A stretch of DNA of 64,000 nucleotides from a virus (Duplodnaviria; Heunggongvirae; Uroviricota; Caudoviricetes), in the IMG/VR virus record IMGVR_UViG_3300030035_000081, positions 1-64,000 of that record; one strand, 5' to 3'. The translations under genes were made by a program, and so were the position numbers. Numbering within the stretch: the stretch's first letter is position 1; each line of letters opens with the position of its first letter. The notes beneath the pieces are model-generated. The model was not told the origin of the DNA and searched no databases. It saw only the letters and a program-made list of their open reading frames with translations. Of this stretch, positions 6,085-63,564 are shown in pieces.

Positions 6085-6112
6085 TGCGGAATCGTGCGAA
6101 TTGCGGACAATT
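6085..6112 (+). promoter_or_regulatory. island promoter family member 1: -35 TTGCGG, 16-nt spacer AATCGTGCGAATTGCG, -10 GACAAT
   Basis: Seen in sequence. Drives a 380-nt leader and the flotillin gene. Confidence 0.6.
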
Positions 6113-6119
6113 AAAGACA

Positions 6120-6499
6120 GAGCGATTGCGAGATGGGGCGATACCGATGCAGTAGGAATGAGAATCTTAGCAGCTAAAAGAGTCAACAACCCCGCCTAAA
6201 CCGGTTCGCCGGTTATAGACGGGGCTTGCGGGGCAACCTGTAAGCCCAGTTGATTAGCCTAAGCCCATTGCTCCGGCAGTGGGGAAAACTACGTTGTGTA
6301 CTAATAATATAGGCACCTTATCCATGCTCCACAAGTGGTGAGCTCTGCAGGCGTTTCGTTAAACATCTCCGAGGGGAGGAGAAGTGCGAGCGTCATGTCG
6401 AAAGGCTAAAACAGTGCATAACATTGGCGAAGTGGACCACAGGACGCAAGTCCTGACTTATAGTTTTATTACTATTTTACGAATGGAGAAACAAAAATT
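6120..6499 (+). promoter_or_regulatory. long structured 5' leader with a terminator-like hairpin (AGGACGCAAGTCCT plus T-rich tract) immediately before the flotillin start
   Basis: No ORF. GC-rich stems such as CCCCGCC...GGCGGGG. Hairpin plus U-tract at about 6436-6480. Confidence 0.35.
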
Positions 6500-8143
6500 A
6501 TGGTATATGTGATTGCGATTGTGGCAGCCCTGATTATTCTCTTTGGATTTCTCTGCTACAAGAAAGCTCCGCCCACGGAGGCTATCGTTGTGACCGGCTT
6601 TGGTCTGTCTAAGCCTAAAGTGGTTTGCGGAAAGGGTACATTTGTTCTGCCCGTTCTTCAACGGGCTGACCGACTGAATATGCGCCTTTTGAAAATCGAT
6701 GTCAAGACTCCTGAAACAGGTGTTAAGACGAAGAACGGCGTAAGTCTCTGGATTGACTCTGTTGTCACGATTCAAGTCTACAGCGAAAACTCTACCGTTC
6801 TGGATGAAGAAGTGAAGGCATCCGGTCTGAAAGACGCCAAGGCGTACATCATGTCCCGACAACAGGCAGCCATCTCGAACTTTCTGGGCATGAACGAGCA
6901 GGGCATCAATGAGAAAGTTAATGACGTTCTGCAGGGCAATTTGCGTGAGATTGTCTCTGACATGACCGTTGACCAAATTCTGACGAACCGCAAGCAGATG
7001 GCTGTGAGCGTTATCGAGAATGCTCGCCCCGACCTTGCTAAGATGGGACTTGAGGTCGTGACTTTTAATGTCCAGGACATCAGGGATGCAGTGGATGTTC
7101 AAGGCCACAATCACGGCGTTATCGAAGCTATCGGCATCGAACAGGAAGAGCTCGTAAAGAAACAGGCTGAAATTGCCCGTGCTCAGGCTGCCCGTGATGT
7201 AGCCTGCGCGAAGGCCGATGCTGAGATGGCTGCAAATGCCAAGGAAGTTGAAGCGCAGACTGCGATTGCAAAACGCAACAATGAATTGCAGCTCGCCAAG
7301 GCAAAGCTGAAAGCTGAAGCTGATAAAGCTGCGGCTGACGCAGATGCTGCCGGTCAGATTCAGATGAATCTCCGCGCCAAAGAAATCAAAGAAGCGGAAG
7401 CGGATGCTGAAATCGCCAAGCAGAAGAAAATGGTAGACCTTGCCGCACAGGAAGCCGAGGTCCAACAACGCAAACTGGATGCGGAAGTCCGCAAACAGGC
7501 AGATGCTGACCTGTACCGCCGCCAGAAAGAGGCAGAAGCCAAGAAATATGAGGCGGAACGTGCAGCTGAGGCACAGAAGTTCTCCAAGCAGCAGGAAGCA
7601 GAAGGCATTGAGCTTGTCGGTAAGGCAGAAGCTGAAGCGATTCGTCAGAAAGGCTTGGCTGAAGCGGAAGCCATGAAACAGAAAGCAGAGGCATATAAGC
7701 AGTATAACGATGCGGCTGTGGCTGAAATGCTCATCAAGGTTCTTCCTGACATTGCCAAGAGCGTGGCTCAGCCTTTGTCCAGCATTGATAAGGTTTCTAT
7801 CATTGGCGGTGATGCCTCCGGCGTATCCGGCGTTTCCGGGAACGTTCCTATCCTGATGGCCCAAACCATGCAGACGGTGAAAGAAGCGACCGGCATTGAC
7901 ATGGGCGAAATTGTCCGTGCCAACAGCATCCAGGCAAAGACAGACCGCAACATCAACATTATGACTCAATGTGAACAGCCTGAGAATAACAAAGAGAAAG
8001 GAGGTGCCAAGGCAATGGAACGCGTAGAAGGCGGCTATCTGATTCATGAGAAGAATCTCAACGGTGAGGAAGTCACTCATTTTCGACCGGATGTGACCGA
8101 AGAAGAGAAGGCTATCATGAAAGACAAAAAGGCCAAAGATTAA
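6500..8143 (+). CDS. flotillin-family SPFH/band-7 protein (YqiK/FloT-like)
   Basis: N-terminal TM helix and SPFH domain, then a long EA-rich coiled-coil with KAEAE repeats. 547 aa. Confidence 0.85.
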   Translation: MVYVIAIVAALIILFGFLCYKKAPPTEAIVVTGFGLSKPKVVCGKGTFVLPVLQRADRLNMRLLKIDVKTPETGVKTKNGVSLWIDSVVTIQVYSENSTVLDEEVKASGLKDAKAYIMSRQQAAISNFLGMNEQGINEKVNDVLQGNLREIVSDMTVDQILTNRKQMAVSVIENARPDLAKMGLEVVTFNVQDIRDAVDVQGHNHGVIEAIGIEQEELVKKQAEIARAQAARDVACAKADAEMAANAKEVEAQTAIAKRNNELQLAKAKLKAEADKAAADADAAGQIQMNLRAKEIKEAEADAEIAKQKKMVDLAAQEAEVQQRKLDAEVRKQADADLYRRQKEAEAKKYEAERAAEAQKFSKQQEAEGIELVGKAEAEAIRQKGLAEAEAMKQKAEAYKQYNDAAVAEMLIKVLPDIAKSVAQPLSSIDKVSIIGGDASGVSGVSGNVPILMAQTMQTVKEATGIDMGEIVRANSIQAKTDRNINIMTQCEQPENNKEKGGAKAMERVEGGYLIHEKNLNGEEVTHFRPDVTEEEKAIMKDKKAKD

Positions 8144-8263
8144 AGACAACATGAAAAGAGGGTGACTCGAAAGAGCCATCCTTTTTTCTGTTGTGACGCA
8201 AACGAAAAGTTCATGGTAGCCATCCAATTTGGGTGACTGTCTTTTTTGCATGTTAAGGCTTTG

Positions 8264-8291
8264 TTGCTGAATTGTGCGAATTGAAGATAAT
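8264..8291 (+). promoter_or_regulatory. island promoter family member 2: -35 TTGCTG, spacer AATTGTGCGAATTGAA, -10 GATAAT
   Basis: Seen in sequence, upstream of 8346 gene. Confidence 0.6.
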
Positions 8292-8345
8292 TAAAAACAA
8301 AAGATGCTTTGTATCAAATCGATTGAAACCGAAGAGGTGAAGTTA

Positions 8346-9149
8346 ATGCTCGGCGTGAGTTTGATTATCATAGCAGCGGCTATAGTCTACATGGTCGAAA
8401 CCTATATCAGCACCTATTACACTATCGAATACATGCACGGAACATCGCTGTTCCTTATCCTCCTTGCGAAATATGGCACGCCAGTCCTGTTCCTGCTGCT
8501 CTGCGCCTACATTGCATATCGCAATTTTCTCAAAAAGCAGAAAGCTGCGGCTTCTGCTGCATCTGAACGGCCTACAAGCAAAGAAGAGCTGTATACCAAC
8601 AAAATTCAAACGGCAGTAAAGACAAAAAGCGTCTTCTCCGAGCAGGCTGACCAAATGCTGTATCAGGTACGGCGCTTCGGGCAAAAAATGGCCGTTGCCT
8701 ACAGCATGACCCAGGATAGCAAGACATCCGGGGAACAAGCCAAGTGCCTAACGTTATTGGAATCCGCAGAACGTATCTTCTATGACCGACTGGATGACGC
8801 GATTCGCTCGGCTTCAATGTTTGATGAAACGGAATACAAGGCTTTCTGTCAAGGCTCTATCTCGTTTGGAAACAAAGAAGAAGCGCAGAAAAAGAAAGAA
8901 ATCTACAATGGTATCGTAAGTACCGTGGATAAGGTAGTTCATGACAATGAGCGCTTAATCCTCCGATTGGATTCTTTAGCATACGCTCTGAACCAACGTT
9001 CTGCCCAGAATCCGTGGGATACAGAGGTTGTCCTCGCAATGTCTAAGCTCGACGCTGTCATCAACAAGACGACGCAGGACATCGAGCAGGATGAAGTAAT
9101 CAGTCGTGAGGCTATGAAACGATATAACAACTTGAAAGGAGAAATTTAA
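8346..9149 (+). CDS. membrane-anchored coiled-coil protein (two N-terminal TM helices; TelA/XpaC-like architecture)
   Basis: GAGGTG RBS then ATG 8346. Hydrophobic N-terminus then a long helical region. Family assignment tentative. Confidence 0.55.
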   Translation: MLGVSLIIIAAAIVYMVETYISTYYTIEYMHGTSLFLILLAKYGTPVLFLLLCAYIAYRNFLKKQKAAASAASERPTSKEELYTNKIQTAVKTKSVFSEQADQMLYQVRRFGQKMAVAYSMTQDSKTSGEQAKCLTLLESAERIFYDRLDDAIRSASMFDETEYKAFCQGSISFGNKEEAQKKKEIYNGIVSTVDKVVHDNERLILRLDSLAYALNQRSAQNPWDTEVVLAMSKLDAVINKTTQDIEQDEVISREAMKRYNNLKGEI

Positions 9150-9150
9150 C

Positions 9151-63111: not shown

Positions 63112-63187
63112 GCTTCTGTAGCTCAGTTGGTAGAGCAGCGGTCTGAAGAACCGCGTGTCGCTGGTTCGATTCCAGCCGGGAGCACCA
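63112..63187 (+). tRNA. tRNA-Phe(GAA)
   Basis: Loop CTGAAGA. Canonical arms. Confidence 0.85.
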
Positions 63188-63190
63188 TAT

Positions 63191-63275
63191 GTGTCGGTAT
63201 GCAAGAGGTTAAAGCAAACGGTCTGTAAAACCGCTCCGTTACGGTTCACTGGTTCGAATCCAGTCCGACACACCA
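63191..63275 (+). tRNA. tRNA-Tyr(GUA)
   Basis: Type II. Loop CTGTAAA. Variable hairpin CCGTTACGG. Confidence 0.85.
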
Positions 63276-63278
63276 TAA

Positions 63279-63352
63279 GGCCCCTTCGACAAGTTGGTCC
63301 AAGTCGCCAGCCTCTCAAGCTGGAGTCGGCAGTTCGAGTCTGCCAGGGGTCA
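63279..63352 (+). tRNA. tRNA-Glu(CUC)-like, no encoded CCA
   Basis: Anticodon stem CCAGC/GCTGG, loop CTCTCAA. Confidence 0.5.
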
Positions 63353-63383
63353 TACAAGCACCTATGTCAAAAAGGTGCATTAT

Positions 63384-63473
63384 GCAGAGGTCGCCTAACG
63401 GTAGGGCAGCAGCTTGCTAAGCTGCCGTCGCGGAAATCGCGGCATGTGAGTTCGAATCTCACCCTCTGCGCCA
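63384..63473 (+). tRNA. tRNA-Ser(GCU)
   Basis: Type II. Loop TTGCTAA. Perfect acceptor GCAGAGG/CCTCTGC. Confidence 0.85.
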
Positions 63474-63476
63474 TCT

Positions 63477-63564
63477 GCTTGCTTGTTCGAGTGGTTGATG
63501 AAATCGGTCCAGAAAACCGACGATGGGAGACTGTCCGAAGGTTCGAATCCTTCAGCAAGCGCCA
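63477..63564 (+). tRNA. type-II Ser-like tRNA, anticodon unresolved (loop CCAGAAA suggests AGA with C33)
   Basis: Acceptor GCTTGCT/AGCAAGC. T-arm GAAGG/CCTTC. Long variable arm. Confidence 0.45.

Follow-up and report, generated by a model that had tools for sequence, protein, structure and literature searches.

The 64,000 nucleotides analysed here (positions 1 to 64,000 of the IMG/VR virus record IMGVR_UViG_3300030035_000081; hereafter the window) contain a block of mostly co-oriented genes, at 6085-63564, which the original prediction assigned to the non-structural arm of a megaphage or phage-plasmid, or to an island left by one. Based on the genes that flank this block, on the distribution of the replicon among gut assemblies and on comparison with described plasmids, we interpret the block instead as the cargo arm of a megaplasmid of gut Bacillota that is circular and self-transmissible, most likely a member of group G1 of the Hodor plasmids (probability about 0.85). 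That the replicon is a conjugative megaplasmid can be stated with high confidence, and its assignment to the Hodor G1 type, for which it is matched by described features and not by marker sequences, is made with good but somewhat lower confidence. The replicon is an already described kind of element, not a new one. The original prediction correctly recognised a large mobile replicon but mistook the kind of element (phage or island); at the level of the block, its observations on gene direction, on the tRNA array and on the genes that are absent hold, and those on the promoters, on replication and on defence were overstated.

Genes in the block were called with the guidance of codon usage and cross-checked with those predicted on public contigs that match it; protein families were taken from precomputed Pfam matches on identical proteins and from PADLOC and PHROGs scans. 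At ≥97% identity, 99.2% of the window is matched by loci on contigs of 205-294 kb, which are titled human gut metagenome. Exact window proteins are found in 805-5,657 assembly blocks (805 for the SF2 helicase, 2,646 for a conserved 477-aa protein and 5,657 for a 123-aa HTH protein), and the longest contigs again cluster at 205-294 kb. More than 70 such contigs are catalogued as viral genomes in IMG/VR, the longest being of 247, 268 and 389 kb (389,222 bp). Hundreds of samples share the gene order of the block, backbone and cargo alike, and differ locally by exchanged cargo genes. Contigs of comparable length have different break points but an unchanged gene order, which suggests a circle of roughly 255-295 kb, present in thousands of gut assemblies; the 268.5-kb contig 184202, for instance, carries the transfer module and the window-equivalent region at opposite ends. 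An ordinary chromosomal context was also looked for, and none of the more than 40 long contigs carrying the replicon has chromosomal flanks. A scan of 185,579 GTDB species-representative genomes with the 477-aa protein returned no close relative of the replicon, and when 48 kb of the window were compared by megablast with 50,697 deposited phages, the matches were all of the size of a tRNA. The left edge of the block is not an element boundary: position 6085 is a mere strand switch beside a TnpB gene, and synteny runs on both sides of it.

Our walk along the replicon covered ~85% of a 268-kb circle, pieces of ~14 kb and 17-27 kb lying outside the part examined. The inspection of the flanks proposed with the original prediction revealed a conjugation module on the left, segregation and adhesin genes on the right, and neither virion genes nor a backbone integrase. 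The conjugation module is of the Gram-positive type and lies 20-45 kb left of the window on matching contigs; its VirB4-like and VirD4-type proteins are encoded on the same contig as the window-equivalent region, and the left-flank genes are likewise almost all on the plus strand. From the window outward, the left flank comprises:

Variable cargo hot spot, the first region left of the window, beyond genes for 340- and 360-aa proteins (L005, L006 and L261-L270, ~14,000-21,000).
DUF4379 paralogs, then a metallophosphatase.
VirB4-like ATPase, 889 aa (P-loop_TraG, AAA_10, DUF87).
Two genes of no assigned family.
VirD4-type coupling protein, 722 aa (T4SS-DNA_transf 3.2e-48, TraG-D_C 1.4e-31).
One gene of no assigned family, then an M23 peptidoglycan hydrolase (Peptidase_M23).
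2,095-aa protein without assigned family, then a type IV secretion system (T4SS) pilin (T4SS_pilin).
RecD2-like helicase, then a DUF2325 protein.
YqaJ exonuclease, PD-(D/E)XK nuclease and S26 signal peptidase, in that order.
DUF3854 primase-type protein, WGR protein, bactofilin and RecG-like helicase, in that order (leftmost).

The best PLSDB matches of the coupling protein are annotated as "VirD4-like, CD1115 family" and come, at ~30% identity, from the 235-276 kb megaplasmids of Clostridium botulinum and C. sporogenes. These plasmids resemble the replicon in size class, in having a Gram-positive T4SS and in the CD1115-family protein, but there is no DNA similarity beyond this low protein identity, and their cargo consists of neurotoxin clusters.

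The right flank carries the partition and surface genes, in the following order:

Second AcrVA2-like gene, 358 aa, just right of the window.
Phage_lysozyme2 gene, followed by many genes without family.
NAD-dependent DNA ligase, GHKL-type ATPase and esterase, in that order.
Bro-N-like protein (recognised by eye), after the esterase and behind a box promoter (see below).
713-aa protein (L316:7707-9848), right of the ligase and behind a box promoter; DxD motif, primase-polymerase-like by eye.
NYN and ADP-ribosylglycohydrolase proteins, then a type IA topoisomerase.
2,617-aa protein (YDG, Gly-rich), then a Big_2 protein.
ParM/Alp7A-like segregation ATPase, 319 aa (ALP_N 8.8e-8, MreB-like_C 1e-9, Alp7A_like_C).
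Open reading frame (ORF) of at least 3,358 aa, plus strand, running off the locus (13 Cna_B repeats, SdrD_B and SpaA domains).

The last of these is a predicted Gram-positive cell-surface adhesin. It accounts for a 10-kb stretch devoid of listed plus-strand ORFs, which is a single giant ORF leaving the end of the locus; a reassignment of stop codons was ruled out. The 713-aa protein combines an N-terminal "FFDIDCH", recalling primase-polymerases, with C-terminal HTH_7 repeats (Pfam saw only the HTH part), and may be a replication protein. No terminase, portal, capsid, sheath, tube or tail gene was detected by Pfam or PHROGs in the window together with ~160 kb of flanks and further chunks, i.e. 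the ~85% of the circle mentioned above.

These features recall the Hodor conjugative megaplasmids, which were found as TerL-less members of a collection of huge phages (Yuan et al., bioRxiv 2026, PMC12934698). Hodors come from the human gut (or wastewater), measure 211-389 kb (351-357 kb on average for the curated complete ones), were detected in 9,349 samples and fall into two groups with GC contents of 47.1% (G1) and 44.6% (G2) (PMC12934698). Their transfer set comprises VirB4, VirD4 and a structurally detected VirB6, together with a short MOBH-like HD nuclease as relaxase, with a 171-172 bp origin of transfer (oriT) upstream, and a separate helicase; their maintenance relies on Rep_3, with a non-coding replication origin (oriV) of >2 kb, and on ParA, ParB and ParM/StbA (PMC12934698). 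They also encode sortases, SecYEG, trigger factor, giant secreted proteins (~2,642 and 7,309-7,704 aa) and type I-C Cas genes, with frequent matches to TnpB and Phage_lysozyme2 (PMC12934698). The replicon described here shares the habitat and the prevalence, each element occurring in thousands of human gut samples or assemblies, and its GC content (47.08% for the block, 46.9% for the window) is that of G1. Its contigs of 205-294 kb and the 389,222-bp IMG/VR contig span a similar range of sizes, although most contigs here measure 254-294 kb. ParM, VirB4, VirD4 and a separate helicase (here RecD2-like and RecG-like) are common to both, as are TnpB, Phage_lysozyme2 and the type I-C Cas genes (here in variants), and the 2,617-aa protein stands beside a much larger one just as the ~2,642-aa Hodor protein does. 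Both elements are also listed in viral databases. The main text of the Hodor paper makes no mention of a tRNA array, the promoter box, the flotillin-VWA module, anti-defence genes, HEARO RNA or the HDV-like ribozyme (PMC12934698). For Hodor plasmids, the window adds the promoter box, a tRNA array with a gene of 6-nt anticodon loop, a HEARO RNA and an HDV-like ribozyme, as well as a detailed view of a mixed arsenal of defence and counter-defence genes.

Several points weigh against this assignment. Rep_3, ParA, ParB, sortases, SecYEG and an HD-nuclease relaxase were not seen in the ~85% of the circle examined; no Walker-A ParA motif occurs in the loci examined, and a search of 10 candidates against NCBIfam, which includes the model TIGR03760, gave no relaxase match. 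As the Hodor paper places the relaxase beside the replication and partition genes (PMC12934698), these markers probably sit in the regions outside our walk, which amount to ~30-40 kb of the circle, or more if its true size is nearer to 351-357 kb. The authors' criterion for relatives is at least 50% identity over at least 70% of the length to the Rep_3, ParA, ParB or ParM markers (PMC12934698), and our comparison was made with described features. The case for circularity comes from contig break points and not from read pairs, many genes have no detectable family, and the roles given to most proteins, as well as the regulator of the promoter box, are predicted ones. The indications of a host are weak and point to Oscillospiraceae or other Clostridia: a protein in the 90% cluster of the 123-aa HTH protein is labelled Oscillospiraceae bacterium SCCA1 at NCBI, the HDV-like ribozyme in the window is of the Faecalibacterium prausnitzii type, and the relatives of TnpB, at ≤54% identity, are in Lachnospiraceae (Butyrivibrio, Oribacterium), TnpB having been rejected as a host tracer.

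Two candidates for the relaxase were considered. A 146-aa ORF upstream of the RecD2-like helicase is preceded by a gap of 167-168 nt, close to the reported Hodor oriT of 171-172 bp, and was rejected as a short HD relaxase as it has no HD motif. A 486-aa protein at the left end of the window carries a C-terminal H..HD..H..D motif; its gene is separated from the transfer genes by 20 kb and preceded by 94-157 nt of upstream sequence, short of the reported 171-172 bp.

The same body of evidence was weighed against other kinds of elements. The non-structural arm of a jumbo phage, with its virion module in the unexamined part of the genome, would agree with the >70 entries in IMG/VR, the tRNA array, the Mor-like regulator, the many PHROG matches, the Phage_lysozyme2 gene just right of the window and the presence of homologs of the 477-aa protein in SPbeta-like phages; jumbo phages (tailed phages of >200 kb) resemble the replicon in genome size, tRNA arrays, co-oriented genes of unknown function, anti-defence genes and automated viral calls. 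Yet terminase, portal, capsid, sheath, tube and tail genes are missing from the ~85% of the circle examined, the replicon has what looks like a full conjugation set along with a ParM-type partition gene, and the pieces of ~14 kb and 17-27 kb are too small for the virion module of a jumbo phage, since the second one must also hold the rest of the giant adhesin gene. TerL was reported only in Hodors carrying an inserted prophage, and geNomad and VirSorter2 consistently misclassify Hodors as viral (PMC12934698), which explains both the phage-like impression and the IMG/VR entries. We therefore regard a jumbo phage as very improbable. A phage-plasmid, that is a temperate phage kept as a plasmid by partition genes and carrying virion genes, is just as improbable: the ParM-like gene does occur together with lysozyme, Mor-like and YqaJ exonuclease genes, but members of this class typically have a full virion module and no conjugation machinery, the reverse of the situation here, and the Hodor authors explicitly set Hodors apart from phage-plasmids (PMC12934698). 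The flanks thus do not support the arm of a megaphage or phage-plasmid, or the island left by one, originally proposed. Size also counts against a phage-plasmid, the known ones being far smaller than roughly 255-295 kb.

Even less probable is an integrative conjugative element or genomic island residing in a bacterial chromosome. In its favour, a tyrosine-integrase-like gene is present in the tRNA region of some variants (L015, weak Pfam match), and a 41% homolog of the DUF3854 primase (L469/L470) lies in an integrase-bearing island with a RecG-like helicase, Big_2 and a WGR/PARP protein, adjoining the chromosomal genes lon, engB and hslO, so that part of the primase-RecG module of the plasmid also exists in integrated elements. 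This homolog had been followed as a route to the Hodor markers and led only to that unrelated integrated element. Neither in the window nor in its flanks does the backbone encode an integrase, the long contigs have no chromosomal flanks and break at different points, the species-representative genomes hold no close relative, and the ParM-type segregation gene argues for autonomous maintenance. Somewhat less remote, but still improbable, is a conjugative Bacillota megaplasmid of a family other than Hodor, whose likeness would be convergent or modular only. The unseen Rep_3, ParA, ParB, sortases and SecYEG would fit such a family, as would contigs that mostly measure 254-294 kb, where curated Hodors average 351-357 kb, and a comparison made by described features and not by marker identity. 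Against it, many independent specifics coincide: GC contents of 47.08% and 47.1%, giant proteins of 2,617 and ~2,642 aa, the shared type I-C Cas, TnpB and Phage_lysozyme2 genes, an upper Hodor size of 389 kb that equals the 389,222-bp IMG/VR contig, and occurrence in thousands of gut samples. A Hodor-type conjugative megaplasmid remains the reading that we prefer. What viral catalogues present as a tRNA-rich "huge phage" of ~260 kb, made of dark matter, is then a conjugative megaplasmid of thousands of gut samples; a viral call by IMG/VR or geNomad, a tRNA array and the lack of a visible integrase are insufficient to diagnose a phage, and it is the flanks that decide.

The block itself holds ~64 protein genes, 58 on the plus strand and 6 on the minus strand (~60 co-oriented genes had been predicted), with a coding fraction of 0.80. 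As predicted, no integrase, recombinase, capsid, terminase or conjugation gene occurs in it, on which the Pfam, PADLOC and PHROGs scans agree. G exceeds C on the plus strand in 24 of the 28 2-kb windows of the block, and A exceeds T throughout. The skew, proposed as a check for discontinuities, is, like the co-orientation, a property of the whole plasmid and does not mark the block. Both fit the bias of Firmicutes, in which genes are co-oriented with replication in one direction, and point neither to the early region of a phage nor to the leading region of a conjugative plasmid. Such leading regions reportedly harbor anti-defence islands, with which the block shares a co-oriented run of genes of the anti-restriction and anti-CRISPR type. 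Here, in contrast, the transfer genes are 20-45 kb away, the whole plasmid is co-oriented and defence is mixed with counter-defence. We have not adopted a leading-region reading, because the oriT was not located and the co-orientation is plasmid-wide.

Transcription of the block appears to be organised by a family of promoters. A k-mer count on intergenic DNA picked out the 10-mer GTGCGAATTG, which is embedded in the motif TTGnnn-N4-GTGCGAATTG-N2-[T/G]A[C/T][A/G]AT, that is a promoter with -35 and -10 elements of the sigma-70/sigma-A type and an invariant 10-nt box within the spacer. The exact 10-mer occurs 7 times in the window, always on the plus strand; the box with a -10-like hexamer (one mismatch allowed) occurs at 10 sites (6094, 8274, 12448, 15034, 16244, 19384, 25668, 35414, 36041 and 52016), all on the plus strand and all intergenic or just before a gene start:

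6084..6111, plus strand: promoter P1, with -35 TTG, box GTGCGAATTG and -10 GACAAT, ahead of the HEARO RNA and flotillin operon.
8264..8291, plus strand: family promoter, box at 8274.
12438..12465, plus strand: family promoter, box at 12448 with one mismatch.
Box at 15034, plus strand: family promoter overlapping the start of the Mor-family ORF.
16234..16261, plus strand: family promoter, box at 16244.
19374..19401, plus strand: family promoter, box at 19384 with one mismatch, directly after a hairpin/T-run terminator.
25658..25685, plus strand: family promoter, box at 25668.
35404..35431, plus strand: family promoter, box at 35414.
36031..36058, plus strand: family promoter, box at 36041 with one mismatch, weak -35.
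52006..52033, plus strand: family promoter, box at 52016, -10 TATAAT.

Taken alone, regardless of context and with one mismatch allowed, the 10-mer is not significantly enriched (14 occurrences against 6.3 ± 2.6 expected, 1 of 100 shuffles reaching 14); we judge the family to be real because the box recurs in exact copies, is accompanied by the hexamers, keeps to one strand and sits between genes or just before a gene start. In variants whose orthologous promoters are 92-94% diverged, the box and the hexamers are kept while the flanking bases have changed. Several box sites come after a hairpin and T-run, and promoters placed behind terminators indicate that the block is a chain of separate transcription units, not a single operon. 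A private promoter family shared by the ~60 genes had been proposed; the family exists, but it serves ~10 units, and it is not private to the block since the tiling path of the replicon contains ~25 box sites, all on the plus strand, some of them before the topoisomerase and 713-aa genes outside the window. On this path no box promoter is found in the transfer, lysozyme-ligase or adhesin segments. As the pattern has 14 specified bases, chance matches are to be expected in scans at the scale of IMG/VR.

The box family looks like a plasmid-wide regulon and is probably read by a plasmid-encoded factor, for which the Mor-like and multi-HTH proteins are putative candidates. A more specific proposal, that the GTGCGAATTG box defines a dedicated plasmid-encoded programme which activates the Hodor cargo for defence, counter-defence, tRNA support and accessory replication functions, is tentative, and we think it more doubtful than not. 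If true, this programme would consist of ~25 promoters on one strand, absent from the transfer and adhesin modules, one of which drives an orphan HEARO RNA. In IncP plasmids, the KorA/KorB regulon is a global plasmid regulon with operators built into the promoters. The presence of a short conserved sequence within many promoters around the plasmid is reminiscent of that regulon; unlike the latter, the box described here is non-palindromic, is located in the spacer between -35 and -10 and has only a candidate regulator, so that the likeness would be a functional analogy. A second, ordinary type of promoter with an extended -10 (TGGTATAAT) occurs at 33250, 34006, 56956 and 62512, all on the plus strand (4 copies against 0.38 expected on that strand); two of these are in the tRNA region.

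The genes of the window with a recognisable family, or with a conserved place in the replicon, are given below; the RNA genes and the tRNA region follow separately.

1351..2880, minus strand: 509-aa backbone protein, no Pfam or NCBIfam match, same position in all contigs.
2891..4351, minus strand: 486-aa protein, C-terminal H..HD..H..D by eye (HD motif at residue 376).
4446..5555, minus strand: TnpB (IS605 OrfB / Cas12f-like; Pfam OrfB_IS605, HTH_OrfB_IS605, Cas12f1-like_TNB).
6500..8143, plus strand: flotillin (Band_7/SPFH + Flot), 547 aa (Pfam PF01145, PF15975; JGI name "flotillin").
8304..9149, plus strand: membrane protein of 267-281 aa between the flotillin and VWA genes, transmembrane segments by eye.
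9151..10845, plus strand: VWA-domain protein, 564 aa (Pfam VWA, VWA_2).
12807..14972, plus strand: PLD-family nuclease, 721 aa (Pfam RE_NgoFVII / PLDc_2 + Aq_aa27; no PADLOC match).
15024..15602, plus strand: Mor-family transcription activator-like HTH protein (Pfam Mor PF08765).
16897..17784, plus strand: AcrVA2-like protein, candidate anti-CRISPR, 295 aa (Pfam PF26125).
19743..21938, plus strand: SF2 helicase, 731 aa (Pfam DEAD / ResIII / SWI2_SNF2 / Helicase_C).
22488..22973, plus strand: NADAR-domain protein, of an ADP-ribose-removing family (Pfam PF08719).
23535..25421, minus strand: HTH_3 protein, 628 aa (faint Pfam match), with a small partner ORF at 23046-23498.
26177..28045, plus strand: DUF4379 zinc-ribbon repeat protein, 622 aa (Pfam PF14311).
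28035..31144, plus strand: type II restriction-modification (R-M) locus, with a methylase at 28035-29144, DUF4238 remnants at 29128-30011 and a DUF262/HNH enzyme at 30008-31144.
Between the R-M locus and the macro-like gene: bPH_2 protein (Pfam).
36492..36968, plus strand: presumed macro-domain-like protein, 158 aa (phrog_335 8e-37; NCKGVMGAGLA by eye).
37139-38146, plus strand: RlaP nucleotidyltransferase (Pfam).
38352-40106, plus strand: UvrD-like AAA_19 helicase, 584 aa (Pfam), truncated relative to a 906-aa variant form.
41164..42180, plus strand: protein with a weak ParB-like N-terminal domain (phrog_5931 2.5e-38; ParB-like phrog_12305 only at E = 0.0025).
44122..45303, plus strand: metallo-beta-lactamase (MBL)-fold protein, secreted or lipoprotein (Pfam Lactamase_B; faint Apyc1 match).
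45442..46884, minus strand: HipA-like (by eye) and HTH_7 pair (PADLOC PDC-M03A 8e-9; Pfam HTH_7).
48643..50887, plus strand: radical-SAM-like protein (weak Pfam match) and conserved 477-aa protein (phrog_12834 7e-72).
Between the 477-aa protein and the multi-HTH regulators: DUF3990 protein (Pfam).
52008..54139, plus strand: three consecutive multi-HTH regulators of ~175, 172 and 317 aa (Mor/HTH_7/HTH_23-type repeats, faint Pfam matches).
54185..55802, plus strand: IetA-like AAA+ ATPase, 304 aa, with a 232-aa partner (Pfam AAA; PADLOC IetA 1.9e-55).
63552..63923, minus strand: 123-aa HTH regulator, found more widely than any other marker of the replicon (5,657 assembly blocks).

The many defence and anti-defence genes announced by the original prediction are borne out in part, as far as family matches allow. 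On the side of defence, support was obtained for the type II R-M pair (methylase with Pfam EcoRI_methylase; restriction enzyme with GmrSD_N and HNH and a full-length PADLOC match to REase_II PDLC03418, 2.2e-129), for the IetA-like ATPase, whose 232-aa partner has no PHROGs match, for the NgoFVII/PLD-type nuclease and for the HipA-like module, which is probably a toxin-antitoxin pair. Counter-defence is supported for the AcrVA2-like and NADAR proteins and is weak for the Apyc1-like MBL protein and for the macro-like protein, which has no Pfam match on record. The replication and partition-like functions claimed for the block come down to two generic helicases of the DEAD/ResIII and UvrD-like types, RlaP and the weak ParB-like domain (E = 0.0025), and the claim went too far; the genes for the ParM-type partition protein, the primase, the ligase and the topoisomerase lie in the flanks, beyond the window. 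For the SF2 helicase, PADLOC gives generic helicase-domain matches only. A sequence search of the PDB was uninformative for the ParB-like protein, which had no match, and for the 713-aa protein. The best homolog of the 477-aa protein in deposited phages is 41% identical and occurs in SPbeta-like phages, and the exact sequence of the 477-aa protein itself is present on at least 1000 contigs. Paralogs of the 628-aa HTH_3 protein occur at other sites of the replicon, and the TnpB locus is fixed in all variants, its position being shared by 10 contigs of 214-280 kb.

The RNA genes and the tRNA region are as follows:

6182..6442, plus strand: HEARO RNA (IscB-type omega-RNA family), full model (Rfam RF02033, 91.2 bits, gathering threshold 83).
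10872..10941, plus strand: HDV-like self-cleaving ribozyme of the F. prausnitzii type, full model (Rfam RF02682, 60.4 bits, gathering threshold 44).
57211..63564, plus strand: array of 17-18 tRNA genes, with small ORFs and two protein genes between them.
58634-58706, plus strand: tRNA-like gene with a 6-nt anticodon loop (46 bits; ARAGORN "anticodon (ca)").
60584..61333, plus strand: HD_4 (RelA/SpoT-type HD hydrolase) protein within the tRNA region (Pfam PF13328).
62781..63002, plus strand: small HTH_3 (Cro/CI-type) regulator (Pfam HTH_3).

The adjacent tRNA array was correctly foreseen. ARAGORN counts 18 genes; Rfam counts 17 in a run on the whole window and finds the 18th in a local run. The order of the tRNAs is conserved in variants L009, L010 and L012, and the gene with the 6-nt loop in every variant examined. 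The HEARO RNA begins ~70 nt downstream of the box promoter P1, just ahead of the flotillin gene, and is conserved in variants L261 and L005. No IscB ORF adjoins it in the window; this orphan RNA might partner with IscB proteins encoded at other sites of the plasmid or serve as a regulatory RNA. IscB-like RRXRR+HNH ORFs were observed elsewhere in variant plasmids (L002:5361-6731, L009:17674-19044). The HDV-like ribozyme lies between the VWA gene and a small ORF and is present in variant L261 and absent from L005; the founding example of its family, from F. prausnitzii, is chromosomal and located upstream of glmM.

From this anatomy, we propose that the block functions as an accessory arm of the plasmid, with at least 10 short transcription units expressed mostly from box promoters, and that its cargo would protect the plasmid and help to establish it in the host. 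The type II R-M system, the PLD nuclease and the IetA-like ATPase would be weapons against competing DNA, and the AcrVA2-like, NADAR and macro-like proteins would be counter-measures against host immunity. The HipA-like and HTH proteins could form an addiction module, next to modules for regulation. The flotillin-VWA membrane module, the alarmone-type HD hydrolase (HD_4) and the tRNAs may be helpers acting on host physiology, the 17-18 tRNAs supporting the translation of plasmid genes.

The variants also differ from the window in a number of places. In L391/L392 (16712-20294, on contigs of 265-271 kb), Cas5d, Csd1 and Cas7 genes stand between RlaP and the full-length 906-aa helicase. These genes belong to a type I-C Cascade, no Cas3 gene was seen with them, and they are absent from the window, where the equivalent position is ~38150-38350. 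Depending on the contig, the hot spot left of the window contains a type I R-M system, an Eco57I-like protein with a T5orf172-ResIII protein (1,098 aa), YpsA and DinB, an RHS-repeat gene, or an IS200 element (Y1_Tnp) with a second TnpB. The tRNA region of some variants has received extra cargo, such as the tyrosine-integrase-like gene mentioned above (L015:19869-21074) or Lar_restr_allev and VWA_CoxE genes (L013:17330-18878). The DUF4379 proteins belong to a large family of paralogs, of which dozens of clusters, 40-50% identical, occur on contigs of 226-388 kb (e.g. L006 19312-21461). In the IMG/VR contig 3300045988_180566 (L216), the ligase is followed almost immediately by the last part of the 713-aa gene and by the topoisomerase, unlike in L168/L316, which indicates a deletion or a misassembly of >20 kb in that sample. 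The 486-aa protein, finally, gave no Pfam, NCBIfam or PDB match and an unusable single-sequence AlphaFold model (pLDDT 35); by eye, its N-terminus shows a possible R-S-E motif of the ADP-ribosyltransferase-like type (YRG ... SWTTS ... EEKE).

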